NCBI GenBank assembly: GCA_965116725.1
Contig: OZ220700.1
Coordinates: 628,923 to 692,922, forward strand
Direction: 5' to 3'
Length of the DNA stretch: 64,000 bases
From: Thermodesulfobacteriota bacterium
GTDB lineage: Bacteria > Desulfobacterota_D > UBA1144 > Nemesobacterales > Nemesobacteraceae
Below the pieces are notes generated by a model. The model did no database searches and was not told where the DNA came from. It was given only the letters and a program-made list of their open reading frames with translations. Shown here piece after piece: positions 9,508 through 54,958 of the stretch (its first letter is position 1; each line of letters opens with the position of its first letter). Both the position numbers and the translations under genes were made by a program.

Positions 9508-11190
9508 CTAGCTCTCCGCCAGTTCCTCTTCCGTAACCCTGAGCACTTCGTCAATTGACGTTATGCCTTTTGCAACTTTGTCGGCACCGTCCATTCTAAG
9601 GGTAATGAGTCCGTTTCTCAGGGCATTTTCCTTAAGCGTTGAAGAATCTGGGTGTGTAAGAATAGTGTTTTTGAGTTCATCATCGATAAGCAGTATCTCA
9701 AAAATCGCTATTCTTCCCGAAAATCCCGTCTCCATGCACTCTTGGCATCCCTTGGCTCTGTATATCTTTCCTTCTGGACAGGCCTCGCGAGCAAGTCCTA
9801 TACGACCGATCTCCTCATCAATCGGCACGTACTGTTCTCTGCACTGCGTGCAAAGAATCCTGACAAGCCTCTGAGCTATGACCGCAGAGAGGGTAGAAGC
9901 TATAAGAAAGGACTCTACCCCCATATCGGCAAGCCTGGTCACGGCGCTTACCGAGTCATTGGTATGCAGCGTGGAAAACACGAGATGCCCAGTGAGTGAA
10001 GCGTTCATGGAAATATCGGCAGTTTCCCTGTCCCTTATTTCCCCGACTAGTATAACGTCGGGATCCTGCCTGAGTATTGAGCGAAGTCCGTTTGCGAACG
10101 TAAGATCGACCTTGGTGTTGACTTGGATCTGGTTAATTCCCTGTATCTGGTATTCAACCGGGTCTTCTATAGTGATTATTTTCTTGTCGGGAAGATTGAT
10201 TCTCTGCAGGGCAGCATAGAGGCTTGTTGTCTTTCCGCTTCCCGTGGGTCCCGTAACGAGAATGATCCCGTGAGGACGTTTGATAAGGGATTCCACCGTC
10301 TCGAGTTTTTTTCCTTCAAGACCCAGCTGCTCGAAGCTCATCAGCACCGAAGACCTGTAAAGCAGCCTCATTACCACGCTCTCTCCCCATGAGGTCGGAA
10401 CCGTCGAAACCCTTACATCGATATCCCTTCCTCCGATCTTCAGCCTTATGCTTCCGTCCTGAGGCTTTCTTCTCTCGGCTATATCAAGTTCAGACATGAT
10501 CTTCACACGTGAGATCACCGAAGACTGCACTGTTTTCGGAACTTTCGTCACGTCGTGAAGAATGCCGTCCTTTCTGAACCGTACCAGCACTTCTTTTTCG
10601 AAACACTCTATGTGAATATCGCTTGCGTGCTCCCTTACCGCCTGAAAAAGAAGCGTGTTTATGAATTTTATGATCGGAGCTTCATCTTCAGCCTCAATCA
10701 GATCCTGGGGCTCGGTAAACTCCATGTCGGAGAGTCCCGAACCTTCGTTTATATCCTCTGACACAACATCTTTGCCCTGCTCGTAGACCCTGTTAATGCT
10801 GTCGGTCAGCACGCGTTCAAGGGTAATGTAAGTTTCTAGCGAGCAGTTAAAGCGGGAGCGAACCTCGTCAAGAGCATAGAGCTCCTGAGGCGGGGCGAAT
10901 ACGACTTTGAGCGTTCCGTTATCCTTGCTTATTGGGAGTATTCTGAACCTCTTCGCGAAGCTGATCGGAAACTGTTTTATCAGTTCATAATCTATATCGT
11001 CTTCGGGAATCGATTCGACTTTTTCGACTCCGTAAAACTCGGAAAGAACATCTAGAGCCGGGGAGTCTTTAAGTACGTCAGTTTTGAGCAGTATGTCTTC
11101 TGTATTCCGACCGTTCTTCCCTTTAAGCTCTTCAATTCTCCCCATAACCTCGGGGTAACGCCTGCCTATTATTTCGTCAAGAGCCTTCAT
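9508..11190 (-). CDS. gspE: T2SS ATPase GspE
   Basis: 560 aa. Walker [10 protein letters not shown]. The Asp box, His box and tetracysteine motif (CTQC...CQEC) are typical of GspE/PilB secretion ATPases. Confidence 0.9.
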   Translation of the reverse strand: MKALDEIIGRRYPEVMGRIEELKGKNGRNTEDILLKTDVLKDSPALDVLSEFYGVEKVESIPEDDIDYELIKQFPISFAKRFRILPISKDNGTLKVVFAPPQELYALDEVRSRFNCSLETYITLERVLTDSINRVYEQGKDVVSEDINEGSGLSDMEFTEPQDLIEAEDEAPIIKFINTLLFQAVREHASDIHIECFEKEVLVRFRKDGILHDVTKVPKTVQSSVISRVKIMSELDIAERRKPQDGSIRLKIGGRDIDVRVSTVPTSWGESVVMRLLYRSSVLMSFEQLGLEGKKLETVESLIKRPHGIILVTGPTGSGKTTSLYAALQRINLPDKKIITIEDPVEYQIQGINQIQVNTKVDLTFANGLRSILRQDPDVILVGEIRDRETADISMNASLTGHLVFSTLHTNDSVSAVTRLADMGVESFLIASTLSAVIAQRLVRILCTQCREQYVPIDEEIGRIGLAREACPEGKIYRAKGCQECMETGFSGRIAIFEILLIDDELKNTILTHPDSSTLKENALRNGLITLRMDGADKVAKGITSIDEVLRVTEEELAES

Positions 11191-11205
11191 TTTCTAAAAA
11201 CTTCC

Positions 11206-13701
11206 CTACTCAAGCGTATTCAGGTCCCTTCTATGAAGCAAGGTCTTTCTTCTCTGGTAATCCGTAAGCAACTGCTTCATATCGCTTTCCGTCTCAACTA
11301 TCCGCGGGGTAAGAAGTATCATCAGGTTAAGCTTCCTGTTCTGATTGCGCTTGAACCTGAACAGGTTTCCAATTAGCGGAATATCTCCGAGCAGAGGTGT
11401 TTTGTTGTGAAGAACCTCTTCTCTGTCCTGAACCAACCCACCTATAACGAGGGTCTGCCCATTTTTGACTATAACCGACGAATCGGCACTTCTTGTTGTA
11501 GTCGCAATGCCGAACTGGGCGGTGTTAAGTCCCGCCGGCGCCTCTCGGGTAGAGGAAACCTCGGTCACTATGTCAAGGTTAAGGTATTCTCCTTCGCTTA
11601 TCTGAGGGGTGATGCTGAGCCTTATTCCTACCGGCAATCTCTCGATTGTCTGAACTGTCACGCCGCTTGTTCCCACAGTGCTGCCCATCGGAAACGGTAT
11701 TACGTCAGCCACCACTATCTCGGCCGGTTCGTTGTCGGTTGTAATAATGCTCGGGGTTGAAAGAACATTGACGTCGGTCACGGAACTCAGCGCCTGAAAC
11801 ACCGCGGAGAACGAAGGAAGAGACGGAAGCGGACCCGAACCGTCGGGGTCAACTTCCTCTCCCACCACTCCGAGAAAGAGCCCCGAGAGACTGCCTATGG
11901 AAGCAGTTGCAATTGTGGGATCAGCCGCAACTCCGAGAAGACTTGGGATGCCCGGCAGCTGCTGTCCGAGAAAACCTAGGTTATCGCCCTCGATTGTAAC
12001 GCCGAGACCGAAATTGGTTCCCAGCGCATTAAGGTTATCAAGACCCACCTCGAGTATGGCAGCTTCCACGAACACCTGCCTTCTCCTTACGTCAAGCTTA
12101 TCCACTATCTGCTTGACCATTCTGTATTGCGTGAGAGAACCGATCACTATGATGGAATTTGTCGCCGGATCCGAAGTTATCTTAAGCCCATCGCCCGAAG
12201 ACACTATGACGGAAGCGCCGGTCTGCTCGTTCCCTCCCCTCTGGATGTTCCCGCCCTGGGAACCTAAGCCACCAACATTTCCGCTGCCACCCCCTTTCCC
12301 CTCTCCGAGACGGCTTGAAGGCTGGCCGGTTCTGCCGGATTGCCGCGCCTGATCCCGATAGGAAACTGAAGACACTGCACCCCCTTTCCCCTCCGTGAAC
12401 AGATTTCCCAGAACTTCGATTATCTGCTCAGCGTCGGCGTTTTTAACCGGTATAACGTAAACGTCCTGTTCCGCGTGCTCGCTCTCGATATCCAAAACAG
12501 CGATCGTCTCCTTTATCAGGGGAAGATCCCTTGGGTCAGCAATCACTATTATGGAATTTGTCCTCTCGTCGTTTATCACTTTAAACCCTAATAGCTCAGA
12601 ACTTCCAGATATGAGACCGTCGTTCTTGCCTTTTGACGGCTTGGTCTTGGCGCTTTTAGGATTGAAGATCTCAAGCAGCTTAAAAATAACGTTGGCCGAG
12701 TTTGTGTTATGCACTTTGATGAACTCTATTTTCTTCTCGTAATCAATATTCGCAATCACTTCGGCTATCTTGTTCACGTTCTGTTCATTATCAACCACAA
12801 CTAGGGTATTCGACGGTTGGTGAGCCTTCATAAACCCATCCTTGCTAACCAGAGCTCGAAGGACGTTGGAAATTCCCTTGGCTTTTACGCTCTTAAGCTT
12901 TATCAGCTTCATCACGTATTTCTGGGAAGACTCCGCAGGGTCGAAATCCAGTCTTAACGGTATGCTCTCTGACTTTATCCCCTTTTTAGGGACGACCTTG
13001 TTAACTCCTTCCGCGCTTATGACCGAGTATCCGTTCATATCAAGAAGTATTTCAAAAATTCTAAACGCATTCTCTCTCTCGAAACCGCCCTCGGGAGTTA
13101 TGATCGTCACATTCTTGTCCCTGATCTTGTCACTCAGGAGATAAACCTCGGAGGTGATCTCGCTTATGGTCTTTACCATCTCATTAAGCGTCATGTTGGA
13201 GCGAAGGTTAACCATCCCCTCGTCCTCGGGAATTTCTTCACCCTCTTCACCGAGAGCTTCATCGCCTGAGACCGCAACTGTTTCCTCAGGCTTCTTCGTC
13301 TCCAGCTCAGGAGCCTTCTCAACTTCGGCCGCAACTTCTTCCTCCGCTAAATCGAGCGGTAGACCGGGGTCCTCGACCAGTCCTTCAAGAGTCTCGTCGC
13401 CAGAAACTTTCACCGCATCTTTTCCGAGAGGCCTTAAGTCTTGCTTGCCCGGATCCTTTGCGGCCTCCTCGGCCAGCAACTCCGCAGCTTCCTTGGCAAT
13501 ATCAGTGGGTTCCGCGGGTGAATCCTCGCCGTTCGCTTTTTCAAGCCTTGTGCCAGGGGCGACAACAACCTTGGCCCTTGTAAGATCCGGAAGCGGCTCG
13601 GACTTCTCTGCAGGAGCCAACTGGGGACAGAGAACGGAAGCGGAAAAAACGAGAACCGCTGACAGAACTGGGAAAAGATTTTTATTCAGAAAGTATTTCA
13701 T
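11206..13701 (-). CDS. gspD: T2SS secretin GspD, with long acidic N-terminal extension and an internal Gly-rich insert
   Basis: Secretin C-domain (VIVKNGQTLVIGGLV, IPLIGNLFRFK). N0/N1-type domains. The signal peptide is taken from the internal Met MKYFLNK..SASVLC. About 100 aa of an acidic, low-complexity segment follows the signal peptide. Confidence 0.85.
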   Translation of the reverse strand: MKYFLNKNLFPVLSAVLVFSASVLCPQLAPAEKSEPLPDLTRAKVVVAPGTRLEKANGEDSPAEPTDIAKEAAELLAEEAAKDPGKQDLRPLGKDAVKVSGDETLEGLVEDPGLPLDLAEEEVAAEVEKAPELETKKPEETVAVSGDEALGEEGEEIPEDEGMVNLRSNMTLNEMVKTISEITSEVYLLSDKIRDKNVTIITPEGGFERENAFRIFEILLDMNGYSVISAEGVNKVVPKKGIKSESIPLRLDFDPAESSQKYVMKLIKLKSVKAKGISNVLRALVSKDGFMKAHQPSNTLVVVDNEQNVNKIAEVIANIDYEKKIEFIKVHNTNSANVIFKLLEIFNPKSAKTKPSKGKNDGLISGSSELLGFKVINDERTNSIIVIADPRDLPLIKETIAVLDIESEHAEQDVYVIPVKNADAEQIIEVLGNLFTEGKGGAVSSVSYRDQARQSGRTGQPSSRLGEGKGGGSGNVGGLGSQGGNIQRGGNEQTGASVIVSSGDGLKITSDPATNSIIVIGSLTQYRMVKQIVDKLDVRRRQVFVEAAILEVGLDNLNALGTNFGLGVTIEGDNLGFLGQQLPGIPSLLGVAADPTIATASIGSLSGLFLGVVGEEVDPDGSGPLPSLPSFSAVFQALSSVTDVNVLSTPSIITTDNEPAEIVVADVIPFPMGSTVGTSGVTVQTIERLPVGIRLSITPQISEGEYLNLDIVTEVSSTREAPAGLNTAQFGIATTTRSADSSVIVKNGQTLVIGGLVQDREEVLHNKTPLLGDIPLIGNLFRFKRNQNRKLNLMILLTPRIVETESDMKQLLTDYQRRKTLLHRRDLNTLE

Positions 13702-13744
13702 AATCTGTTTTAACCTTAAGAAACTGAATTTTTTTGTATTAGGC

Positions 13745-14692
13745 CTAGTAAACCGTGTACCGGTTACTCTTTCTTTTACCTCGTCTCGTGAAATCAACGG
13801 TAAACTCACTCTGGCCCCTCAAGTCGGTAAAAAGCGAAAGAGCGCTCTGCACATCGTTTAAAGCAACTTCATTTATCTGGTGAACTATATCCCCGTTTCT
13901 AAGACCCATTTTATAAAACACGCTCCGGCTTCTCACCCCGAAGATCTTGATACCGTCATCGCGCGGCACAATCTTAGCCTCGGTTATTAAACTGCTGGGT
14001 TCAGCGAGCAGTTCTTCAAACATTACTCTTTCTATCTGGTATAAGCCCTCGCTGACCTTGCTGACCCCTGAAGCCGACGACTTTTTTGACTTGACAGACG
14101 GTCTGTTCCTTACTGAAGAACTCGCGGGGCTTTTTGCAAAAACGGATTCAAGCTCGTTTCCGCAGGTAATCAATTCGGGACCTTCCGCTCTTCGTATAGT
14201 CACTTCGCAGTCGTCTATTTTCACTACCTCTACTTTTTCGGATGTTACAAGATCAACCAACTGCCCTTCAGAATAACCCTTTATTTTGCTATTTTCCATA
14301 TTCTTTATCACGGCGATGCTCTTGTTGGCCGCAGAATTAGTGCGGCTTTTGAGTATGAAAGTTCCAAGAAGTTCAAGCTTGAGGGAAGTTTTCGGGGTAA
14401 CCTCCCCCTCGAAAACTTCCGAGAAACCACCCGTCTCTATCTGTCCAGCATAACCGCCCGTTCCAAACAGGTTTGTTCTCAGTATAGAGTCGTAGTACTC
14501 TCTTGAACGATAGGGAATCTTAACCTGTCCGTACTTCTCCTTGTAGAGATGTTCACCTGTCAGACCTCCCTTGTCGGACTCTATCTTGTCGCGCAGGCCG
14601 TTGTTGATCGTGGCCGAAACCGAGTACGCAATGGCGACTATCAACAAGACGTTTACGACCCAAACATACTTTCTTAAAACGAGCAAAACCAT
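13745..14692 (-). CDS. gspC: Putative GspC (N-terminal TM anchor + C-terminal PDZ domain)
   Basis: 315 aa. A single N-terminal TM helix. C-terminal PDZ-like segment (GLRNGDIVHQINEVALNDVQSALSLF). It is the first gene of the gsp operon, the usual GspC position. Confidence 0.5.
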   Translation of the reverse strand: MVLLVLRKYVWVVNVLLIVAIAYSVSATINNGLRDKIESDKGGLTGEHLYKEKYGQVKIPYRSREYYDSILRTNLFGTGGYAGQIETGGFSEVFEGEVTPKTSLKLELLGTFILKSRTNSAANKSIAVIKNMENSKIKGYSEGQLVDLVTSEKVEVVKIDDCEVTIRRAEGPELITCGNELESVFAKSPASSSVRNRPSVKSKKSSASGVSKVSEGLYQIERVMFEELLAEPSSLITEAKIVPRDDGIKIFGVRSRSVFYKMGLRNGDIVHQINEVALNDVQSALSLFTDLRGQSEFTVDFTRRGKRKSNRYTVY

Positions 14693-19437: not shown

Positions 19438-21732
19438 CTATGACCTGTTCCGGTAGGTCAGCTGCACACCGAAGGTTCTGCCTTTGGAGAGCGGCGCGAA
19501 CGAACCTCCCCCGAGGGAGGGGTGGAGATCAACATAGCTTCCGTGTTTAACTTGGTCAAGAAGGTTCTTTCCGTAAAATCCGATTGAGAACCTACCGTTC
19601 ATTGGAGTGATATCAATTCCAGCGTCAACAACTTTCTGCTCTGGAGTATATCCTTTGTTGTCATCTGTAAGGTATAACTTGCTGCGATACGAGTAGCTTA
19701 CCCTTGAAGTCAATTTCGCCCAGTTCGCAAGTCCGGCATCATGGGTCGCGCCGAAGCTCCAAGTCCACTTTGCGGCCCGGGGAAGCTGTAAAGCTAGGTC
19801 TTTTACGTCAAGAGTGCCGTCTCGATTAAGATCATGTTTTACTTTAGTGTACTCGGGATCTACGTATCCGACGAAACCCAGAAGAAAAAGTTTCTCGGTA
19901 ACGGCGATCAGGCCGTCAAATTCAAAGCCGAAGGCTTCTACATCCGCAGTGTTGCGAATCTCCTCGGCTATGCCGCCCAAGGCCACGGATTCTGGAAGAG
20001 TTATCACCCTCTGCACATCATCGATCAGGTTATAGAAAACCGCACCGTTCAGGATGCCTATGTTTGTTGATAACTTGAATCCTGCCTCGAAGGTATCGAT
20101 CTTTTCTTCATCGTACGGTCCCGGGCGTTCCACCTCTGGGGCATAGGTATTGCGCAGATTATAGCCTCCAGAGCGGTATCCTCTGGTCCAGTGTCCGTAA
20201 ACGTTCGCTTCAAAGTTCGCTCCGCCGTCTAGATAGTAGGCAACGCCGAGCTTGGGCGACCAACTGTTCCAGGTCTCTTCGTCGGTGAAATCAAGCGGGC
20301 ATGCGGGTCCGGTCGCGAAGTTGCATGGCATTCCCCCGCTGGCTGTAGCGGGGGCGGAGGATGTCTCAGCCTCTCTCTTTTCATAGCCGTAACGGGTGCC
20401 CGCGGTAAGCATTATCTGATCCGTAAGATCGTAATCAAAAGAGAGAAATACACCTAGCGTATCAACGTAATAATTCCCTCCCAAGTCTTGGATAATAGCT
20501 CCTCCTAACAGATAACGGCGGTCATGATAATTTATCTCGTTTGTAAAGTAATAAAAACCGGTCGTCGCGTGGAGACTTTCGAAGAATCTGCCCGCGTAGC
20601 GCAGTTCGTTGCTCCACTGACGGTAGGGGGTCCATCCACGTATATTCAAAAGGTTTTGCGACGAAGAATCGATATCAAGCAAAGCGGACCCGTCCGCGTC
20701 GTAAAGGCCAAATATGTTCGTTATGGTGCCATCTCCGAAACCCACATCCCAATTCACCTGAGCGGAGAAAAAGTGATTTCTATGCTCCCTGAAGCCTTCC
20801 TCGTCGATGCTGAAATCATGACTATTAATATTGAAGTCGCGCTGGTTCTGTCCCGGGGAGCCATCGCTTTCCGAATTCTCGTACCGGTAGCGCAGAACAA
20901 GGCTTACGTCATCCGTTGGATTCCACGTAATAACCGATCGTACCATTCGTGTGTCGTTCTCTCCGTAAGCCTCGCCCGTGTGGAGATTCTTAAACCAGCC
21001 GTTATCCTGATTTGTGTACGCACTTATCTTTACGCCGATGGTCTCGCTAATAGGGCCTCCGATTGTGCCCATATAATAGCTGTTAAGACTCTCGCCTCCT
21101 CCTTCAAACGTAGTGCGGGCCGATATCTCAAGAGCATCTCCCGGTTTTTTCGTGTTAACCAGTATGGCGCCCCCCGTGACATTACGGCCGAAAAGTGTTC
21201 CCTGCGGCCCCCTCAGCACCTCCATGCTTTCAATATCGAAGGTATCAAACAAAACGATGGTTGTCTGCCCTAGGTACACGCCGTCGACAAACACTCCCAC
21301 GGTTGGATCAACAGACGCTATGGAGCTGTTTATTCCGACACCGCGGATGGAAAAGTTGGCTATTGCCATTCCCGAGATGGAATCGTCAAGTGCCACATTG
21401 GGCATGCTCGCTGATAGACTTTCAAGATCGTTTACCTTCAAAGCCTCAATCTTTTCGGAACTGAAATGGGTGATCGCCAGGGGAACGTTCTGAATCAGCT
21501 CTTCTCGTTTTCGGGCGGTGACCGTGATTTTTTTGAGAAGTACGCCGCTTACCCCAAACAAACTCTGTGCAGCTGCCTCATCGTCTTGTGCAGCTGCGTC
21601 ACCGCTGCCGAGCGACGCCAGGAGTACACCTGCGAGAAACAGGCTCAAAAACCCCTTCACTGCAGACTGAAATTTTCCTCTAATTATTTTGATACCCTCC
21701 TTTCTCCGGGAGATTATAACATAATCCTGCAC
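19438..21732 (-). CDS. TonB-dependent outer-membrane receptor
   Basis: 764 aa. Signal peptide. Plug-domain motif (MEVLRGPQGTLFGRNVTGGAILVNTK). Long beta-barrel. Confidence 0.85.
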   Translation of the reverse strand: MQDYVIISRRKEGIKIIRGKFQSAVKGFLSLFLAGVLLASLGSGDAAAQDDEAAAQSLFGVSGVLLKKITVTARKREELIQNVPLAITHFSSEKIEALKVNDLESLSASMPNVALDDSISGMAIANFSIRGVGINSSIASVDPTVGVFVDGVYLGQTTIVLFDTFDIESMEVLRGPQGTLFGRNVTGGAILVNTKKPGDALEISARTTFEGGGESLNSYYMGTIGGPISETIGVKISAYTNQDNGWFKNLHTGEAYGENDTRMVRSVITWNPTDDVSLVLRYRYENSESDGSPGQNQRDFNINSHDFSIDEEGFREHRNHFFSAQVNWDVGFGDGTITNIFGLYDADGSALLDIDSSSQNLLNIRGWTPYRQWSNELRYAGRFFESLHATTGFYYFTNEINYHDRRYLLGGAIIQDLGGNYYVDTLGVFLSFDYDLTDQIMLTAGTRYGYEKREAETSSAPATASGGMPCNFATGPACPLDFTDEETWNSWSPKLGVAYYLDGGANFEANVYGHWTRGYRSGGYNLRNTYAPEVERPGPYDEEKIDTFEAGFKLSTNIGILNGAVFYNLIDDVQRVITLPESVALGGIAEEIRNTADVEAFGFEFDGLIAVTEKLFLLGFVGYVDPEYTKVKHDLNRDGTLDVKDLALQLPRAAKWTWSFGATHDAGLANWAKLTSRVSYSYRSKLYLTDDNKGYTPEQKVVDAGIDITPMNGRFSIGFYGKNLLDQVKHGSYVDLHPSLGGGSFAPLSKGRTFGVQLTYRNRS

Positions 21733-25541: not shown

Positions 25542-27476
25542 TTACGAATGTTTTTCCCGGTATACGTAATTTCGTGCAAACAAAGAAAAGGCAAGGACAA
25601 GAAGGACAGCTTGGGGGATCGCGGTCTCATAAGAGGGATATATCCCGAGGGTATCCATGTAAGGAATGAAATCCGCCGTAGTTGAAGAAATAATTCCCGC
25701 CTCCTGGAGTTCAAGTATTCCCTTGCCAAGAAGTATGAAACAAAGCAAATAGAGGAAAACGCTCGTGAAGGAAAAGAAGTATTTAAGAGGAATCCTGAGG
25801 GTAAACCTGTACATAAGAAAGGCTATTACGAACACGACCGCCACTCCCGCAACAAGTCCATAGATCACGTGCGGCGTGGATGAACCGGTCTGGAAGAAAA
25901 GTGCCTGGTAAAAAAGCATCGTCTCGAAAGCCTCCCTGTAGACGGCAAGAAACGAAACGAAAGCAAGGGTAAGACCGCTTCTGCGTGTAAGCGCGCCCTG
26001 GGTCTTCGAGCGGACGTATTCCTTCCATTTTTTTACGTCCGCTTTTGAGACAAGCCAGTAACTTACGTAAAAAAGAATCGCTGCTGCCAGAAGAGAAGTC
26101 ACTCCTTCCACAATCTCCCTTCTAGCCCCCGAGATATCTATTATGGTTCTTGCCGCAACCCACGTCGCCAGTCCCGCAAAGATGGCGAGCACCCACCCGT
26201 AGTGAACGTACCTGATCATCCCGCGGTTACCTGAATGCGCCAAAGCGGCGATAATGGCCGCGATTATAAGCAGAGCCTCAAGCGCTTCTCTGAGTATTAT
26301 GGCAAAGGAATTAACAAAACTGAGGTATTTGCCGAGCGATGAGCCGCCTTGTAGGATGCGTTCCGACTCGCGAAGATCCTCCTCTATGCTAGCTTTCAGA
26401 TCATGAAGCTCGGAGGAATCCCGGTCGGACATCACTAATGACCTGAAAAATCCTATTTTTTTCTCAACCTCAAGAACAAGCGGTCTTTTTTTCGATACCA
26501 AGGCAGGTTCGATTCTCTGAAACCCTCCCAAGTACCCGTCGAGAGCCTCCTTGAAAGCCTCATCCTTTCTACCGGCCTCGTAAAGATCGATGGCCTCTTC
26601 AAGCTTCCTCAGGGTATGGGCTATAGCTTCGGATGCACCTCCAGCAATTCCATCCCGAAGATAAGCGGTTCTCAGGTAAAAAAGAACTTCCTCGTCACTG
26701 CCCCCGGCTCCGGCATTAAGAAGAATCTCCGCATTGCTAGCTAGGGCAAGGTTTTCAAGCTTTCTTACATCATGGGAAATATTCTCCGTGGAGAGCCCAG
26801 AAGTACCTCCGCCTGAGGGAATATCCGGATACCCAAGCGAGAGAACGTAAAACGCCACATCCCATTTCTGTTTTTCGTCAAGCACTTTTTCGAACGAGGT
26901 CATGGCGGTACCTTCGATCCCGAAAGTGGTGGTGTTGTAAACTTTAAAGGGTGAGAGCCCGAGATTTATATCAGGATCTGTGAAATCCGTGGGAGGAGGA
27001 TTGAGGGTCTTAGAGAAAGCATCGTCCGGCCTTCCTGAGAGCCCATGACAGGAGGAACAGTTCCTTACGTAAAGCTCTTTTCCGCTTTCGTAATCGGGTA
27101 TATTCGCCGGATAGGGTTTGATGGCATAGGCTGAAATGATCCGCCCCTTCAGTTCACCTGCAAGGCTTTCCACTTCGGAGACGGGTCCCTTGGATACTAC
27201 AATTGAGTGCAGACGTGCGAATTTTTCGGAAAAATCAGTTGTTCCTTCTCTCTTTTCACCCGTTTTTTCCCACAGGTCAACCGCTATGGAAGAAAAATCC
27301 AGCATTTCCTGATACTCAAATTCGTTTATGATCTCCCCTTCTTTTACGGCATTTGCGTAATCTCCTCCTATGTAATCGACAAGAGAGAGGATCCTGTCTA
27401 TCTCTGCGGCATAAGAGAATGCGGGAAAAAGAAAAAATATGAGAACTGACAAACAGAAGAAACTTTTTTTAAGCAT
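25542..27476 (-). CDS. Cytochrome c / FTR1-family high-affinity iron permease fusion
   Basis: Signal peptide. Periplasmic domain with a single CSSCHG haem-binding motif. The C-terminal polytopic domain has two RExxE motifs (REALEAL, REAFETM) diagnostic of FTR1/EfeU. Confidence 0.8.
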   Translation of the reverse strand: MLKKSFFCLSVLIFFLFPAFSYAAEIDRILSLVDYIGGDYANAVKEGEIINEFEYQEMLDFSSIAVDLWEKTGEKREGTTDFSEKFARLHSIVVSKGPVSEVESLAGELKGRIISAYAIKPYPANIPDYESGKELYVRNCSSCHGLSGRPDDAFSKTLNPPPTDFTDPDINLGLSPFKVYNTTTFGIEGTAMTSFEKVLDEKQKWDVAFYVLSLGYPDIPSGGGTSGLSTENISHDVRKLENLALASNAEILLNAGAGGSDEEVLFYLRTAYLRDGIAGGASEAIAHTLRKLEEAIDLYEAGRKDEAFKEALDGYLGGFQRIEPALVSKKRPLVLEVEKKIGFFRSLVMSDRDSSELHDLKASIEEDLRESERILQGGSSLGKYLSFVNSFAIILREALEALLIIAAIIAALAHSGNRGMIRYVHYGWVLAIFAGLATWVAARTIIDISGARREIVEGVTSLLAAAILFYVSYWLVSKADVKKWKEYVRSKTQGALTRRSGLTLAFVSFLAVYREAFETMLFYQALFFQTGSSTPHVIYGLVAGVAVVFVIAFLMYRFTLRIPLKYFFSFTSVFLYLLCFILLGKGILELQEAGIISSTTADFIPYMDTLGIYPSYETAIPQAVLLVLAFSLFARNYVYREKHS

Positions 27477-27691
27477 AGTCCGCGGACATCTCCCCATCTT
27501 GGGGGTCAGGGAAGGTACTTTTTACCATTCTAGACCTTTATTGTCAATAATTCTCATTGTCGTTATTTTCACCTTTCTAAATGGTTCCGGGAAGAAAATC
27601 AGACGGGTAATTTCGCTGATTTTCTTGTCTGTAAATATTTTTTAAAAAATTCTTGACATCCTAACTCCAGAATGTTATTAATCTGCGTCAT

Positions 27692-27706
27692 GGATATCAA
27701 ATATCC
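27692..27706. promoter_or_regulatory. Perfect inverted repeat GGATAT-CAA-ATATCC in the divergent FTR1/porin intergenic region (candidate operator)
   Basis: The AT-rich dyad lies about 55 nt upstream of the porin ATG. A second Fur-box-like AT-rich stretch (TTGTCAATAATTCTCATTGTCGTTATTTT) is at about 27541-27570. Confidence 0.35.
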
Positions 27707-27761
27707 ATAATATCTATTAATTGCGCAACCCTAAAAGGTAGTAAAAGGAGGATGTCAACAG

Positions 27762-29075
27762 ATGTTTAACTATACAAGACGGTGGAAAATTCTTTCTGTC
27801 TTTTTCCTGATTTTTTCACTCGCAGGAACTCAGGTTTCTCTAGCGGCCACAGCTTCGGAGGAAAAGATAAAAAAGCTTGAGGAGCAGATAAAGGTTCTAG
27901 CGGATGAGATAGAAGCCATAAAGTCCGCTTCGGTAATGGAGCCTCCAGTCTATGAGACAGAATTCGGTGTGGCCCCGGCGGCCTCGAAGGTCTACAGGGT
28001 TGACCAGGGAGTATCGTTCGGGGGATACGGTGAACTGCTTATAGCCAACGTAAAAGAGGATTCGCACGACATAGTGGATAACCTGAGACTTGTTCTCTAT
28101 AACGGCTACAAGTACAACGACCATATAGTTTTCAACTCGGAAATAGAATTCGAGCACGGTACAACGGGAAGCAACAAGGATGGAAAAGCGGGGTCGGCAT
28201 CGGTTGAGTTTGCGCTGATTGATTTTCTTATAAGCGATGAATTCAACCTGAGGGCCGGACTTCTCCTGACTCCTTTCGGAATCGTGAACGAGATTCACGA
28301 GCCAACGACGTTCTACGGAGTGGGTCGACCCGAGGTGGAGAGGCGGATAATTCCGAGTACATGGAGAGAGTCCGGGGCCGGGGCGCACGGAACGTTTGAT
28401 CTGGGCACCGGCGGGGAGCTTTCTTACAGGGCCTATGCAATGTCGAGCGCCGATGCCCGGGGATTTAAGGCATCGGATAACAGGAGTCTTAGGATCAAGG
28501 GAAACAGGGCTAGATTTGACGATATAGCTTTTGTCGGAAGGCTTGAGTACGACCCTATTCCGGGACTGAAAATCGGCGGGTCCATGTTCTACGGCAACAC
28601 GGGACAGGACGAAGAAGTTAATGGCCAGACGATAGACGGCCTTTTCCAGATGTACGAAGTTGACGCGCAGTTTCAGTATGCCGGGTTAGACCTGAGGGCT
28701 CTATCAGTCTGGACCATGCTGGATGACGCCGCACTTATAAACCAACTTAATGAGTATGAAGGCAACAAATCCGTCGGGGAAGAACAGTCCGGCTGGTATG
28801 TTCTAGGAGCATACAACATTTTCTCTGCGCTCAATTCCGGAAGCAAGTACCTAGAGTATCTGGCGCCTTTTTTCCGGTATGAAAAATTTGATACTCAGGA
28901 GAAAGTTCCCGTCGGATATGAAAGAGACCCGGCAAACGAAAGAACCCAATATACTTTCGGTATAAATTACAAACCGATCCCAAATGTAGTCATAAAAGCC
29001 GAGTATCAGAATCTTGATAACGCCGCGGATGAGGCGACGGATCAGTTCAACTTCGGGCTTGGGTACGTGTTTTAG
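27762..29075 (+). CDS. Putative outer-membrane porin (N-terminal coiled coil + beta-barrel, phosphate-selective porin O/P-like)
   Basis: Signal peptide. A coiled-coil stretch (EEKIKKLEEQIKVLADEIEAIK). Alternating amphipathic beta-strands. C-terminal aromatic (GLGYVF). Confidence 0.5.
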   Translation: MFNYTRRWKILSVFFLIFSLAGTQVSLAATASEEKIKKLEEQIKVLADEIEAIKSASVMEPPVYETEFGVAPAASKVYRVDQGVSFGGYGELLIANVKEDSHDIVDNLRLVLYNGYKYNDHIVFNSEIEFEHGTTGSNKDGKAGSASVEFALIDFLISDEFNLRAGLLLTPFGIVNEIHEPTTFYGVGRPEVERRIIPSTWRESGAGAHGTFDLGTGGELSYRAYAMSSADARGFKASDNRSLRIKGNRARFDDIAFVGRLEYDPIPGLKIGGSMFYGNTGQDEEVNGQTIDGLFQMYEVDAQFQYAGLDLRALSVWTMLDDAALINQLNEYEGNKSVGEEQSGWYVLGAYNIFSALNSGSKYLEYLAPFFRYEKFDTQEKVPVGYERDPANERTQYTFGINYKPIPNVVIKAEYQNLDNAADEATDQFNFGLGYVF

Positions 29076-29187
29076 GATACAGAACTTAAATCCGCGATAA
29101 ACGGGCGCGGGTTTATGCTTCTTTTTTTCTCTCTTTTTCTCTCTTCAAAAGGGCAATATTCAGATAGAATGTTGCCCTTCTTTAATC

Positions 29188-29739
29188 ATGAGTATGAGAA
29201 TCCTTATCTTAATAACGCTTTTGTTTTTTCTGCATGGTGCGGGAGATGCATCCGCCAAGGTCTTTCTTACCAAAGGCAGGGCGCTTGAGCTCCTTTTCCC
29301 TGAAGCAGAAGAAATAGAAAAAAGACACGTTTTTCTCACTAAACCCCAAGCCGAAAGCGTACGCGAAATGGCCAAGGTAGAAGTAGATTCAAGACTCTAC
29401 ACTTTCTACATAGCGAAATCCGGCGGGGAAGAGACAGGCTACGCGGTTATCGATACCCACACTCTTCGTACCTTGACCGAAACCGTAATGTTCGTAATAA
29501 ATCCCGATGGGACGCTTCGCCACGCCGAAACTCTCGCATTTTTCGAACCCACGGATTACATGCCAAGCGGAAAATGGATAAACTTGTTCCTGGAAAAAAC
29601 CAAGATGGACAGAATGAAGGTAGGAAAGGGAGTTCCCAACATTACTGGAGCCACTATAAGTGCCGTATCTTTTTCGCAAGCCACGAGAAGGGTTCTCGCA
29701 GTCTACAGGGTTATGCTCGGCACTCCGACTGATCAATAA
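29188..29739 (+). CDS. Secreted FMN-binding domain protein (ApbE substrate-type flavinylation motif)
   Basis: Signal peptide. C-terminal FMN_bind-like motif PNITGATISAVS ([ST]GAT[IV][ST]) as in NqrC/RnfG/PplA. An ApbE gene is 0.5 kb away. Confidence 0.65.
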   Translation: MSMRILILITLLFFLHGAGDASAKVFLTKGRALELLFPEAEEIEKRHVFLTKPQAESVREMAKVEVDSRLYTFYIAKSGGEETGYAVIDTHTLRTLTETVMFVINPDGTLRHAETLAFFEPTDYMPSGKWINLFLEKTKMDRMKVGKGVPNITGATISAVSFSQATRRVLAVYRVMLGTPTDQ

Positions 29740-29759
29740 CTTCTATCCAGGAGAGAAAA

Positions 29760-30257
29760 ATGAAATTCTTCATTTCATCGGACATAAGAAAAAACGATCT
29801 GTTAAAACTTGTCGTTCTGCTCACGACTATTTTCTTCCTCTTTTTGTGGTTAACCAACCTTCTGCTTTTCCTTAAGGTGGGGTTCAGCTATGAAAGCGTT
29901 GTTGAGTACTACAGGGGATCCGAAGAGAGTTTCAGGCCTCCGAGAAGCTACCTTGGGCTGCTCGAGGAAGCTCATTTCCACTTTTTCTCAATGGCCGTTT
30001 TACTGGTAACGCTAAATCATCTCTTTCTTTTCACTAACAGAAGCTCCGCCGAAAAGCTCCTCGTCATAATAGCGTCTTACGGCTCAGCCTTCCTCGATAT
30101 AGCCGGGGGCTGGCTAGTAAGGTACATAAGCGCCGAGTTTGCCTATGTTAAAATCGGCTCTTTTGTCGTCCTTCAGATATCTCTTCTTTACCTGATCATT
30201 TTCGTGACGTTTTATCTTTACAGAAAAAAACCGGAGTACCCGAAGCCGCAACAGTGA
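29760..30257 (+). CDS. 4-TM membrane protein with conserved intramembrane His residues (possible DUF4405-like haem b / quinol-interacting subunit)
   Basis: 165 aa. Four hydrophobic helices. A His cluster in TM2 (EEAHFHFFSMAVLLVTLNHLF). Located between the FMN-binding protein and ApbE. Confidence 0.4.
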   Translation: MKFFISSDIRKNDLLKLVVLLTTIFFLFLWLTNLLLFLKVGFSYESVVEYYRGSEESFRPPRSYLGLLEEAHFHFFSMAVLLVTLNHLFLFTNRSSAEKLLVIIASYGSAFLDIAGGWLVRYISAEFAYVKIGSFVVLQISLLYLIIFVTFYLYRKKPEYPKPQQ

Positions 30258-30269
30258 CTCCCCTGTACC

Positions 30270-31247
30270 CTACGGGCACGCATAAGACCCGAAGCAGGAC
30301 TTTTTCTTTCCGCTTTTCCCAACGACGAGAAAACCCTGAGATTTATACTTCCGGGCAAACTCCTGTGCTCCACGTAGGCCCAGAACCGAAACGGCAGTCG
30401 AGAAGACATCGGCTTCCGTAGCGGTTTTGGAAACGGCTACAACCGAAGTCACATCCTCAGCCGGCCAACCCGTCCTGGGATCAATTATATGGGAGTATCT
30501 TTTCCCATCGTGCTCAAAGTAGCGCTCATAATCTCCTGAAGTCGCGACACCCTTGTTCACAAGGTCAAGTTTCGAGATGATTTCGCTTCCGCTCCCGGGT
30601 TTCCTCACTCCCACATCCCAGAACTTTTTGCCCGCGGGGGGGTCCATTGCGTATATGTTTCCCCCGAAATTCACAAGCCCCCTCTTGATCCCGTTTTGCC
30701 TAGCGATATTTACGATCTCGTCAACCGCATAGCCTTTTCCTATAGCTCCGAAGTCGAGTCTAACGCAGTCGCCGTCAAGGAAAACCTGGGATTTAACTTC
30801 GTCTATTTTTATTTTCCGAAAACCCGTACACCCAAGTGCGTCGCGGATCCGTGACCGGCCGGGTAACCGCCCCGCCTTGGTCTCAGCCCCCCAGAGTTCG
30901 AAAAGACTGCCGATAGTTATGTCAAAAGCCCCTTCGGTAAGCTCCGAGTACTTAACCGAGGCCCGCACGAGACGTAGAAACTCTGTGGGAACGGAAACGG
31001 GAGCAACTCCCGCATTTCTGTTCACCTCAGCAAGAACACTGTCATCCCTGTAGTTACTGAAAAGCCGGTCTATTTCCTTGGTTCTCTTCACGCAGGCATC
31101 AACAACCCGGTGAAAAAGTTCCTCGCTCGGGGAATAAAACTTAAGTTCCACCGTTGAACCCATCGAGTAAAAAGATCTCTCGTAAAGATTCTCCGTACCG
31201 TGGGAGCAGGAACAAAGAAGCAAAGCTAAAAGCACAAGAAGGCGCAT
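30270..31247 (-). CDS. apbE: FAD:protein FMN transferase ApbE (lipoprotein)
   Basis: 325 aa. Lipobox LLCSCS. ApbE core motifs (GAIGKGYAVDEIV, VNFGGNIYAMD, ATSGDYERYFEHDGKRYSHIIDPRTG). Confidence 0.85.
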   Translation of the reverse strand: MRLLVLLALLLCSCSHGTENLYERSFYSMGSTVELKFYSPSEELFHRVVDACVKRTKEIDRLFSNYRDDSVLAEVNRNAGVAPVSVPTEFLRLVRASVKYSELTEGAFDITIGSLFELWGAETKAGRLPGRSRIRDALGCTGFRKIKIDEVKSQVFLDGDCVRLDFGAIGKGYAVDEIVNIARQNGIKRGLVNFGGNIYAMDPPAGKKFWDVGVRKPGSGSEIISKLDLVNKGVATSGDYERYFEHDGKRYSHIIDPRTGWPAEDVTSVVAVSKTATEADVFSTAVSVLGLRGAQEFARKYKSQGFLVVGKSGKKKSCFGSYACP

Positions 31248-31274
31248 ATCTTGAGAATCACGTAAAGCGTTTTT

Positions 31275-31357
31275 CTGCGAGAGGAGGGAGTCGAACCCTC
31301 ACACCCTAAGGTACTAGATCCTAAATCTAGCGCGTCTGCCTGTTCCGCCACTCTCGC
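31275..31357 (-). tRNA. tRNA-Leu (anticodon TAG), type II
   Basis: Reverse complement: GCGAGAG acceptor, CTAGA-TTTAGGA-TCTAG anticodon arm, long variable arm, GAGGG-TTCGACT-CCCTC T-arm. Confidence 0.85.
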
Positions 31358-31429
31358 CCTTTACAGTCAAAAATCGCCAAGCACCCGGAATCATGGTTCC
31401 GGACAGCACCGTAAGATGCAAAATGAATT

Positions 31430-31502
31430 GGGCTGCGAGGGATTCGAACCCACGACCGACTGATTAAGAGTCAGCTGCTCTACCAGGCTGAGCTAGCAGC
31501 CC
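31430..31502 (-). tRNA. tRNA-Lys (anticodon CTT)
   Basis: Reverse complement: GGGCTGCTAGCTCAGCCTGGTAGAGCAGCTGACTCTTAATCAGTCGGTCGTGGGTTCGAATCCCTCGCAGCCCA. Anticodon loop CTCTTAA. Confidence 0.88.
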
Positions 31503-45679: not shown

Positions 45680-45753
<74 letters not shown>

Positions 45754-47027: not shown

Positions 47028-47392
47028 CGAGTCGGTCATGCGGTCGCCCGCGGCTTGTACGCGGGAGGAAAGTCCGAGCTTCGCAGGGCAGGGCGCTGGT
47101 TAACGACCAGGTGTCGCGAGACAACGGAAAGTGCAGCAGAAAGCATACCGCCTGGGCGCCGTAGGCGCCTCGGTAAGGGTGAAAAGGTGGTGTAAGAGAC
47201 CACCGCTCCGAAAGTGATGGAGGAGGCAAGGCAAACCCCGCCTGAAGAAAGACAAATAGGAAAACATCCGGACAACTGTCCGGTCAGGGCGGCCCGTCCT
47301 GGTTTTCGGGTAGTCGCTTAAGGTATCCTGGCAACAGGTATCTCAGATGGATGACCGTACTTGACAGAACTCGGCTTACAGGCTGACTCGCT
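47028..47392 (+). ncRNA. rnpB: RNase P RNA (bacterial type A)
   Basis: P1 helix (GCGAGUCGG / CUGACUCGC). Conserved GGGAGGAAAGUCCGAGCUUCGCAGGGCA (P4/CR-I). GGUAAGGGUGAAAAGGUGGUGUAAGAGACCACC (P10-12 region). ACAGAACUCGGCUUACAGG 3' P4 strand. Confidence 0.85.
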
Positions 47393-47460
47393 TCCTTCCC
47401 CTATTTCTTGCGTAAACAAGTTCGTTATGGTCAGAATCATCCGGAAAAAACTGGGCTTGA

Positions 47461-48694: not shown

Positions 48695-50179
48695 TTATGG
48701 AAGATCGGTTGATCCCATAAGATACCTGTCGCACTCTCTTGCGGCTTCTCTTCCCTCGTTTATAGCCCACACCACAAGGCTTTGCCCCCTGCGCGAGTCC
48801 CCCGCAGCGAAAACTCCCTCGACGTTCGTCATGTACTTTCCATACTCCGCCATGGCGTTTGAGCGCTCGTCGGTACGGACATTCATCTGCTGGAGGAGTT
48901 CCTGTTCGGGTCCCAGGAATCCGAGGGCCAAAAGCACTAGCCCACATGGCCATTTCTGCTCGGAACCCTCAACTTCTCGAAAAGTCATCCTTCCGTCATC
49001 CCCCATGTACCACTCAATGCGTACGGTCTCAAGTTCCGCCACCCTGCCCTCTGCATCTCCTACGAATCTTTTGGTAAGAACCTGATACCTTCTCGGATCT
49101 TCTCCGAAAACCGCCATGGCCTCCTGTTGGCCGTAATCAAGGCTGTACACCCTAGGCCATTGCGGCCACGGGTTATCCGCAGCCCTTTCGAGCGGAGGCT
49201 TGGGAAGTATTTCGAACTGAAGAAGGCTCCTGCATCCGTGTCTCATGGATGTCGCGACGCAGTCGGTTCCGGTATCGCCGCCCCCGAGGATGATAACGTC
49301 CTTGTCCGCGGCGGAGATGTAGCGGCCGTCGGCGAGCCCACTGTCAAGAAGGCTCTTCGTGTTAGCCCTCAGGAACTCCATAGCAAAGTGGATTCCATCA
49401 AGGTCCCTTCCCTCAATCGGAAGATCCCTAGGCTTCGTAGCTCCCGTGCATATCACGACCGCGTCAAAGTTCTCTATGAGTTCGTTTCCGTCGATATCCT
49501 TTCCCACTTCCGTGTTGGTGACGAACTCGATTCCCTCCTCCGCAAGTATATCGACGCGGCGGTCGACTATCTTCTTGTCGAGATGGGGGTTGGGAATTCC
49601 ATACATGAGCAGTCCGCCGATGCGGTCGTCCCTCTCAAACACGGTGACCAGGTGTCCCGCCTTGTTAAGCTGTGCTGCGCAGGAAAGTCCCGCGGGCCCG
49701 GAACCTATGACGGCGACTTTCTTCCCGGTTCTGATCTCGGGAGGCTCGGGGGTTATCCATCCTTCCTCAAAACCCCTGTCGACTATGGCGCACTCTATGC
49801 TTTTTATGGTGACCGCGGGCTCGTTAATGCCCAGAACGCACGACCCCTCGCAGGGAGCGGGGCATATCCGGCCCGTGAACTCGGGGAAATTGTTCGTCTT
49901 GTGAAGTCTCTCGAGAGCCTCTCTCCAGAGTCCCGAATAAATCAGGTCGTTCCACTCGGGTATAAGGTTGTTTATGGGGCATCCCGCGGTCATGCCGCCG
50001 ATTATCTGGCCCGTCTGGCAGAAGGGAACCCCGCAGTCCATGCACCTTGCACCCTGAGTGGCAAGCTCTTTTTCGGGGAGATGACCGTGAAACTCGTCCC
50101 AATCGGCGATTCTGCGGGCAGGATCTCTGTCAGGCCCGAGCTTCCTTTTGTAATTCATAAAACCTGTGGGATCACCCAT
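48695..50179 (-). CDS. gltD: Glutamate synthase (NADPH) small subunit
   Basis: 494 aa. N-terminal Cys cluster (CMDCGVPFC ... CPAPCEGSC). FAD/NAD(P) Rossmann folds ([11 protein letters not shown]). Confidence 0.9.
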
Positions 50180-50211
50180 TGAAAAACTTCTCCTCCGTCA
50201 GAGCTTCCGTG

Positions 50212-54810: not shown

Positions 54811-54958
54811 ATAACTGTCCGCCTGTTGTGTTGTTATGAAAAAACAACGCGAGAACTAATGCCGGCGTAAGCAACCTCTTCAGACGCCATCGTGTAATTA
54901 TAACATAAATCCGAAACTCCGCACACGCACCTCCCGCGGTTATAATAAACGAGGAAAG

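Follow-up and report, generated by a model that had tools for sequence, protein, structure and literature searches.

In a stretch of 64,000 nucleotides (the window) from contig OZ220700.1 of an uncultured Dadabacteria/Thermodesulfobacteriota bacterium, we analysed a minus-strand gene, 25542..27476, that encodes a cytochrome c fused to a permease of the FTR1 family. The protein belongs, almost certainly, to the PbrT-type ‘cytochrome c/FTR1’ branch of the iron/lead transporter (ILT) superfamily, and is an unexceptional member of it. It consists of an inner-membrane FTR1 domain with seven transmembrane (TM) helices and a periplasmic N-terminal helical domain, into which one His/Met-ligated haem c domain is inserted. 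The fusion itself changes nothing: it defines a named family, found at hundreds of sites in species-representative genomes. The most interesting remainder is an uncharacterized trio of genes, encoding a porin, an FMN-binding protein and a small membrane protein of family PF27139, and its recurrent pairing with cytochrome c-FTR1 genes. By analogy with yeast Fre1 and Fet3p-Ftr1p, and with EfeUOB, the permease and its neighbours may carry out a reduce-then-reoxidise form of periplasmic iron uptake, a proposal that we judge about evenly balanced between right and wrong.

Two start codons were considered for the permease gene. The longer open reading frame (ORF) begins at an ATG at 27497 and would span 25542..27497 on the minus strand, giving 651 aa. 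The second in-frame ATG lies at 27476 (M8, MLKKSFF...), has a GGAG about 13 nt upstream, and gives 644 aa, with the stop codon at 25542-25544. The majority of homologues are 644 aa long, with their N-terminus (MLKK...) at M8. Because most homologues begin at M8, and because of the upstream GGAG, 25542-27476 is probably the true coding sequence. Residue numbers follow the 651-aa frame (start 27497).

The C-terminal part of the protein, residues 393-651 (25545..26321, minus strand), is an FTR1 permease domain according to Pfam, NCBIfam, the structural model and hydropathy. Pfam FTR1 matches with E 1.7e-29 and 103.4 bits (curated cut-off 25.3), and the NCBIfam EfeU/Ftr1 subfamily model covers residues 393-604 with E 3.9e-42. 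The NCBIfam subfamily and EfeU equivalog models score 144.8 and 118.6 bits, under their strict whole-protein cut-offs of 303.8 and 255, so that the permease is to be regarded as a member of the FTR1 family and not as an EfeU equivalog. Escherichia coli EfeU, which we rebuilt from the frameshifted K-12 pseudogene, is 30% identical to the permease domain over 211 aa. In the pairwise alignment, REALE at residues 403-407 (TM1; 26277-26291, minus strand) falls on REGLE 10-14 of EfeU, and REAFE at residues 521-525 (TM4; 25923-25937, minus strand) falls on REGLE 129-133, column for column. A third RE..E motif, REIVE, is found at residue 460, at the periplasmic end of TM3 (26106-26120, minus strand). 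Conservation was assessed in an alignment of 110 diverse full-length relatives, taken from 50%-identity representative clusters and 29-46% identical, in which REALE and REAFE are 95-98% conserved. The model places helices at residues 387-421, 425-456, 460-484, 506-536, 538-566, 571-599 and 623-650. A hydropathy scan (threshold 1.5) backs six of the seven, and TM4, which contains REAFE, falls under the threshold. From the periplasmic haem domain that precedes it, we infer that the permease domain has its N-terminus outside. In a clade of Thermodesulfobacteriota proteins with about 48% identity (P0082, P0091, P0120), the C-terminus is extended by a cytoplasmic tail of some 90 aa. The tail contains the motif HIKGHIIEW..C.DIDLEAE..D, which is strongly conserved in that clade, and is not present in the window protein.

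All parts of the periplasmic extension are likewise encoded on the minus strand. It begins with a hydrophobic leader, MLKKSFFCLSVLIFFLFPAFSYA (residues 8-30; 27408..27476; translation checked), which lies in a hydropathy segment at residues 7-34. The leader is likely cut by Sec after SYA (...SYA/AE), and could alternatively stay as a membrane anchor. It is followed by periplasmic helical domain 1 (residues 31-134; 27096..27407), delimited by conservation and by helices in the model, then by a mono-haem class-I cytochrome c domain (residues 135-222; 26832..27095), defined by Pfam, fold and conservation, and finally by a linker and periplasmic helical domain 2 (residues 223-392; 26322..26831).

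Sequence and fold agree on the nature of the cytochrome domain. Pfam Cytochrom_C matches residues 137-221 with E 3.6e-9 and 38.3 bits (curated cut-off 21.3), and Pfam Cytochrome_CBB3 matches with 36.7 bits (curated cut-off 27). The domain holds the sole CxxCH of the protein, the CSSCH haem site C147-H151 (27045-27059), and the distal ligand Met199 (codon 26901-26903), which was assigned by alignment with a solved structure: G-T-A-M199-T-S-F aligns with G-T-P-M-P-S-F of the di-haem cytochrome 6h5l_B. A profile of 69 relatives compared with the PDB matches 6h5l_B at 6.8e-35, and CcoP and c552 at 1e-9 to 1e-12. When the AlphaFold model was searched with Foldseek, the best matches of the cytochrome part were cytochrome c6, with target-normalised TM-scores of 0.64-0.70 and probability 1.00. 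Over the range of matches that includes the ACIII monohaem subunit, TM-scores are 0.47-0.70, and E-values are just 0.07-0.8 with the whole chain as query.

The conserved residues extend well beyond the haem. Among the 110 relatives, C147, C150, H151, M199, G193, R352 and L475 are 100% conserved, and Y42, D46, Y47, E61, E64, Y322, E330 and E345 are 97-99% conserved, with E330 at 97%, in agreement with an alignment of 69 sequences. Helical domain 1 contributes Y42, D46, Y47, E61 and E64, within a motif VDYIGGDYxNAV...EYxEM, and helical domain 2 contributes Y322, E330, E345 and the invariant R352. The conserved Tyr, Asp and Glu residues are ligands of the sort used to bind Fe(III), and they form a candidate metal site. 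The helical domains gave only noise against Pfam at E<=1, when searched as two segments. A profile of the 69 sequences matched only cytochromes in the PDB, and Foldseek with the full model returned nothing beyond the cytochrome c matches and spurious helical repeats. We considered whether the helical parts are an EfeO/M75-imelysin domain, P19 or a known metal-binding domain, and rejected these assignments, as no similarity to them was found by sequence, profile or fold.

These results can be set against a sequence-only reading of the same DNA, which had described a signal peptide, a haem c domain and an FTR1 permease in one polypeptide. That description is borne out by the Pfam and NCBIfam matches and by the motifs: Cytochrome_C and FTR1 both exceed the Pfam curated cut-offs, the CxxCH region does align with cytochrome c folds, and REALE and REAFE are positionally equivalent to the RExxE motifs of FTR1. 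Its account of the N-terminal part correctly included the haem domain, but overlooked about 270 residues of conserved periplasmic helical domain that flank it. It had also proposed that the haem domain stands in place of a separate ferroxidase partner. Domain searches agree to the extent that no EfeO, P19, cupredoxin or multicopper oxidase was found in the protein or in neighbouring genes, but that the haem replaces such a partner is an interpretation of this pattern. The implication that the fusion is unusual does not survive, since the family is large, already named, and spread across many phyla.

A scan of one genome per species found at least 557 confirmed full-length relatives in many phyla. 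In the best 80 of these, the match spans practically the whole length, and they come from Dadabacteria/Thermodesulfobacteriota, Binatia, Acidobacteriota, Methylomirabilota, Verrucomicrobiota, Chloroflexota, Spirochaetia, Ignavibacteriales, Gemmatimonadales, and Beta- and Gammaproteobacteria that include the cultured Limnohabitans and Rheinheimera. The top 120 homologues all have the same three Pfam domains. With the N-terminal 392 aa as sole query, we obtained 286 representative clusters at E<=1e-30, mostly of 620-690 aa. The close Dadabacteria homologues bear the same NCBI name as a Cupriavidus plasmid protein, and genes with the same annotated name occur on plasmids of Cupriavidus, Sphingobium, Afipia and others. 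Across 609 residues, the Cupriavidus gilardii plasmid protein shares 35% identity with the window protein. Its gene adjoins lspA and genes for a P-type ATPase for heavy metals and a MerR-type regulator that responds to Cd/Pb. We also considered an identification with the cyanobacterial ‘cFTR1’. The preprint that uses this name is silent on a cytochrome domain, and the ‘c’ may mean cyanobacterial, so we do not take it as precedent.

The plasmid-borne relatives bear on the identity of the metal. PbrT has been described as a putative Pb(II) uptake protein of the ILT family whose role in resistance is unclear (PMC3431237), and Pseudomonas members of the PbrT type have been listed (PMC2573884). The closest annotated cultured relatives include plasmid copies beside pbr/czc-type heavy-metal resistance genes; furthermore, the DtxR family of repressors, a member of which adjoins some related operons (see below), includes Mn sensors. 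The protein might then import another metal, such as Mn(II) or the Pb(II) that has been proposed as the substrate of PbrT, with the haem in a regulatory or structural role. However, the context of related operons is of an iron type (ferritin, an Fe-type solute-binding protein, TonB/ExbBD/TonB-dependent receptor), it is through RExxE motifs that iron permeates Ftr1p and EfeU, and lead uptake would serve no evident need in a Dadabacteria genome. We therefore consider import of a metal other than iron very unlikely.

The trio of genes is divergent from the permease gene, and a gene for ApbE is convergent with the trio, 13 bp beyond it. The first gene of the trio (27762..29075, plus strand) encodes a 437-aa outer-membrane beta-barrel porin-like protein, which starts with a signal peptide, has a coiled coil in its N-terminal part and ends in ...GYVF. 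Its own match is a weak one to BBP2, and its orthologue at locus L038 matches Porin_O_P above the cut-off. The second (29188..29739, plus strand) encodes a secreted FMN-binding-domain protein of 183 aa with the flavinylation motif N-I-T-G-A-T156-I-S (T156 codon at 29653-29655; translation checked). In five diverse orthologues N151, G154, A155 and T156 are invariant. The FMN protein of the window falls under the FMN_bind threshold (18 vs 22 bits) and also matches RnfG weakly; the FMN_bind match is clear in the orthologue at locus L137, and is marked weak in one from a JGI sample. ApbE itself (325 aa; 30270..31247, minus strand), an FAD:protein FMN transferase, is recognised by Pfam (E 1.9e-81) and by NCBIfam.

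The third protein of the trio, encoded at 29760..30257 on the plus strand, is a 4-TM membrane protein of 165 aa that belongs to Pfam PF27139 (Aq_1264_TM), as judged from the Pfam record and the model. It has a confident four-helix model (pLDDT 85.7). Its invariant residues are E55, E70, H72, H74, H87, K99, W118 and R121, and D113 is near-invariant. The three invariant His residues all lie on TM2 (E70-x-H72-F-H74...H87), and H74 and H87 are spaced by 13. Di-haem transmembrane cytochromes b have four His ligands in a helix bundle, paired 13-14 residues apart. As the 4-TM protein has only three invariant His residues, two haems would need a dimer. On the other side of the permease gene, its downstream neighbours encode trigger factor (tig), ClpP and ClpX, which is housekeeping synteny. 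Beyond tig-clpP-clpX, 4 kb past the permease, there is a gene for a TonB-dependent receptor (Plug and barrel; 19438-21732, minus strand), whose position is kept in close relatives and which is possibly iron-related.

To judge the linkage between permease and module (the trio with ApbE), we used two sets of loci: a permease-centred set of 81, in which the module was sought within 10 kb, and a 4-TM-centred set of 53, obtained from a metagenome scan and look-ups. In the close clade of permeases (64-100% identity, Dadabacteria-type), the module is present within 10 kb, and divergent, in 13 of 15 loci. The divergent arrangement also occurs at L084, L118 and L133, and a whole or partial module is found at L036, L038, L046 and L063 (labelled as Acidobacteriota/Candidatus Acidiferrales, Verrucomicrobiia, Chloroflexota and unclassified bacterium). 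Among the 4-TM-centred loci, the three genes of the trio stand side by side on one strand wherever the contig lets this be seen. Fifteen trio-centred loci have at least 3 kb on both flanks, and five of them have both permease and ApbE adjacent.

A second gene arrangement is a co-directional, Verrucomicrobia-type operon, found at L038, L091-L093, L096, L100 and L137. Its order is permease, an optional CCP_MauG-like di-haem protein, porin, FMN protein, ApbE and 4-TM protein, with overlapping stops and starts. A DtxR-family iron-dependent repressor adjoins the operon at L038 and L137, as does ferritin at L137, and in JGI sample 3300043331 the surroundings include genes for an Fe-type solute-binding protein and an ABC ATPase. 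The occurrence of two gene arrangements in distant phyla argues for a functional link between permease and module. We also observed CCP_MauG-type di-haem peroxidase-like genes in or beside this operon in soil lineages (L038 7712-9466; L137 4983-6830 and 12866-14158), and at L137 ferritin and a catalase-related protein follow the operon. The CCP_MauG genes suggest an electron sink linked to peroxide, which recalls EfeB of EfeUOB. In the JGI sample, the gene next to those for the solute-binding protein and the ABC ATPase, and upstream of those for porin, FMN protein, ApbE and 4-TM protein, encodes a 1221-aa product that combines an ABC permease domain (BPD_transp_1), Cytochrom_C and FTR1. Either the three are truly fused or separate genes were merged when the genes were called.

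In the mechanism that we propose, ferric species would enter the periplasm, perhaps via the co-encoded porin, and would be reduced to Fe(II). The likely reductant in the lineage of the window would be the secreted FMN protein, which ApbE would flavinylate at T156 and which would be re-reduced through the His-rich 4-TM protein. Fe(II) would then be taken by the Tyr/Asp/Glu cluster of the helical domain (Y42, D46, Y47, E61, E64, Y322, E330 and E345) and oxidised by the adjacent haem c, and the resulting Fe(III) would be passed to the RExxE motifs of TM1, TM3 and TM4, and from there across the membrane. The electron of the reduced haem would go to an external acceptor, which could be the respiratory chain or a di-haem peroxidase of the CCP_MauG type, such as the soil-lineage operons encode. 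A fuller picture, which we put forward tentatively and consider less likely than not, is that porin, FMN protein, PF27139 protein and ApbE constitute an undescribed flavin-based extracytosolic ferric reductase of diderms, with the 4-TM protein as a new minimal transmembrane conduit for electrons or metal, and that this reductase is paired with the haem of cytochrome c-FTR1 as a complete bacterial counterpart of Fre-Fet3-Ftr1. In that picture, the cytochrome domain of PbrT-type permeases, so far without explanation, would serve as a ferroxidase.

Several observations weigh against the proposed mechanism, at the level of both loci and proteins. The module is present in 16-18 of the 81 permease-centred loci, so it is not a general partner of the permease. 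Permease genes of the 47-49%-identity clade have only housekeeping neighbours (methylmalonyl-CoA mutase, QueC, QueE etc.), and many proteobacterial and Methylomirabilota loci have genes for ExbB, ExbD and a TonB-dependent receptor instead of the module. Conversely, 10 of the 15 well-flanked trio-centred loci are without a permease, and eight of these form one syntenic clade that has no ApbE nearby. Even close relatives of the window can be without the module. At L011 (84% identity) and L013 (69%), tRNA-Leu is followed by about 270-320 nt and then directly by the permease, and the whole four-gene block is gone. At the level of the proteins, the helical domains are without a match in Pfam and the PDB, and the metal site is proposed from residue conservation. 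The full-length AlphaFold model is of medium confidence (pLDDT 68.9, pTM 0.37). The 4-TM protein has no structural relatives at E<1, and its top match, at E 1.7, is haem A synthase. The window encodes no acceptor for the electron of the haem. We found no experimental work on the haem domain of any family member in the literature searched, so the fusion is known and named, but mechanistically unstudied. Finally, a His/Met haem could equally be an electron donor.

With regard to the loci, the many exceptions mean that the link between permease and module is facultative. The sequence-only reading had pictured a self-contained periplasmic machine for iron redox and import, coupled to a neighbouring flavinylation module. 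Comparison of gene neighbourhoods shows that this association is more than local chance, as it recurs in a distant lineage and in a different operon, and comparative genomics thus partly supports a redox-and-import machine. ‘Self-contained’ is too strong, however: most cytochrome c-FTR1 genes occur without the module, the module occurs without the permease, and the window lacks an acceptor for the haem electron.

The exceptions could also mean that permease and module are unrelated neighbours, and that the module serves another periplasmic redox task and merely occupies an insertion hotspot next to tRNA genes. In the window, the block of ApbE, 4-TM protein, FMN protein and porin genes sits between the tRNA genes that border it, tRNA-Leu(tag) (31276-31357, minus strand) and tRNA-Lys(ctt) (31429-31502, minus strand), and the permease gene. 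Comparing window positions 27477-31357 with the corresponding intervals of L011 (9650-10000) and L013 (9602-10000), which have no block but an intact element upstream of the permease, we conclude that the module is gained or lost as a unit and that the permease persists without it. (An apparent ‘ApbE fragment’ in L011 proved to be an artefact of stop-to-stop ORFs through the tRNA region.) Besides this movement as one block, a lack of relation would account for the syntenic clade that has the trio with neither permease nor ApbE nearby, for the plainly housekeeping genes downstream of the permease, and for the different conserved palindromes at the two divergent promoters. On the other hand, it does not readily explain why same-strand, reordered versions with overlapping codons exist in Verrucomicrobiia, Acidobacteriota (Candidatus Acidiferrales), Chloroflexota and related metagenome contigs, nor why some of these loci adjoin an iron-dependent repressor, ferritin or an Fe-type ABC transporter. 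Moreover, ApbE is adjacent in five of five permease-bearing well-flanked trio loci versus two of ten permease-less ones. We thus regard a chance neighbourhood as improbable.

The region between the two divergent genes contains two conserved palindromes. Upstream of the permease, the conserved element TTGACAATAAAGGTCTAGAATGG (27525..27547, minus strand) holds a TTGACA -35-like hexamer and a palindrome, TTATTGACAATAA, and does not vary among relatives, even where the module is absent. Upstream of the porin operon, a perfect palindrome, TGGATATCAAATATCCA (27691..27707, plus strand), lies just downstream of a promoter-like site (TTGACA-17-TATTAA). It differs from the element at the permease promoter, is kept as far as the lineage with an approximately 50%-identical permease (L084), and is a candidate operator. 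Inspection of 27498-27761 by eye yielded no convincing match to a Fur or DtxR box. A 23-nt sequence, TTGACNNTAAAGGNCNAGANTGG, has two exact copies in the window, one upstream of the permease and one seemingly upstream of ApbE. We considered it as a sign of co-regulation of the two genes and rejected this idea: the second copy consists of the leader and first 10 nt of tRNA-Leu, and the permease-side copy is kept in genomes without the module. The element upstream of the permease, TTGACAATAAAGGTCTAGAATGG...AGTACCTT (27477-27580, minus strand), resembles tRNA-Leu both in its leader with the first 10 nt (TTGACTGTAAAGGGCGAGAGTGG) and in a later AGTACCTT. It could be the decayed remains of a tRNA-like sequence, or just the promoter of the permease.

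With regard to the proteins, the main alternative to our proposal inverts the direction of electron flow. Electrons would pass from the membrane via the 4-TM protein, the FMN protein and haem c to Fe(III), and the permease would then carry Fe(II). The NCBIfam label of the EfeU/Ftr1 subfamily, ‘ferrous iron transporter subunit’, fits such a relay. The flavin module is furthermore an obvious electron source that is genetically linked to the permease, whereas there is no obvious sink, and transfer from flavin to haem c is thermodynamically downhill. However, class-I cytochromes c with His/Met ligation usually have high potentials and hence reduce ferric chelates poorly at neutral pH. A flavin module is absent from the neighbourhood of most family members, whose haem would be left without a donor. 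Soil-lineage operons encode a CCP_MauG-type peroxidase, which is an acceptor for cytochromes c, and the best-studied FTR1 systems (Fet3p-Ftr1p) oxidise iron before permeation. Although sequence cannot by itself choose the direction, the potentials of His/Met haems and the peroxidase gene favour the oxidase, and we consider the reductive relay unlikely.

Whichever way the electrons flow, the cytochrome and the two helical domains of this large family have apparently never been characterised. The conserved Tyr/Asp/Glu residues provide targets for mutagenesis, with which one can ask whether bacteria run an oxidase-permease mechanism with haem rather than copper. Under the reduce-then-reoxidise proposal, the linkage to a flavinylated protein and a 4-TM family suggests a compact reductive-oxidative route of iron uptake in abundant uncultured lineages of soil and sea. 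Elsewhere in the window we observed ordinary housekeeping features at 47028-47394, 45680-45753, 48698-54855 and 9511-13818: RNase P RNA (class A), tRNA-Met, the large and a GltD-like small subunit of glutamate synthase, and the secretin and ATPase of type II secretion.

The proposed system resembles several known ones, and differs from each. In yeast Fre1/Fre2 and Fet3p-Ftr1p, the permease is homologous and likewise carries RExxE in TM1 and TM4. The proposed scheme also follows the yeast logic: extracellular ferric iron is reduced, then re-oxidised at the permease, and Fe(III) is channelled. The yeast oxidase is a separate multicopper oxidase, whereas here it would be a fused haem c, and the yeast reductase is a NOX-type flavocytochrome b, whereas here a periplasmic protein with covalently bound flavin would fill this role together with its 4-TM partner. 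EfeUOB of E. coli and Bacillus subtilis likewise has a homologous permease domain in EfeU, and CCP_MauG would serve as an EfeB-like sink. In contrast to EfeUOB, the system described here has no EfeO cupredoxin/M75 domain and no DyP peroxidase, and its redox centre is fused to the permease.

The flavin side can be compared with the FMN_bind proteins RnfG and NqrC, which share the [S/T]-G-A-T motif. The FMN protein of the window has weak FMN_bind/RnfG matches and an adjacent ApbE gene. Unlike RnfG and NqrC, it is a free-standing secreted protein that always occurs with a porin and a small His-rich 4-TM protein, and there are no other Rnf or Nqr subunits. On the permease side, the PbrT-type protein of Cupriavidus has the same layout of leader, helical domain with DY..DY...EY.EM, CxxCH cytochrome, second helical domain and 7-TM FTR1. 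The gene described here is chromosomal, belongs to an uncultured Dadabacteria/Thermodesulfobacteriota host, and has a flavinylation module adjacent to it rather than metal-resistance genes.

P19/FTR1-type systems, with which FtrABCD of Bordetella and Brucella is grouped, offer a further parallel. P19/FTR1 clusters with FMN-binding proteins have been proposed to perform assimilatory iron redox chemistry (Meheust et al. 2021, PMC8238504). The text part of its supplementary files is uninformative here, as it contains none of PF03239, FTR1 and PF10634. Those clusters, like the loci studied here, link FTR1 genetically to an ApbE-type flavinylated extracytosolic protein (PMC8238504). They are mostly Gram-positive, whereas the present system belongs to diderms, has its own porin and a PF27139 4-TM protein, and has no P19 or cupredoxin. 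The pairing of the trio with cytochrome c-FTR1 extends the published FMN-protein link of P19/FTR1 clusters (PMC8238504) to a haem-fused permease in diderms.

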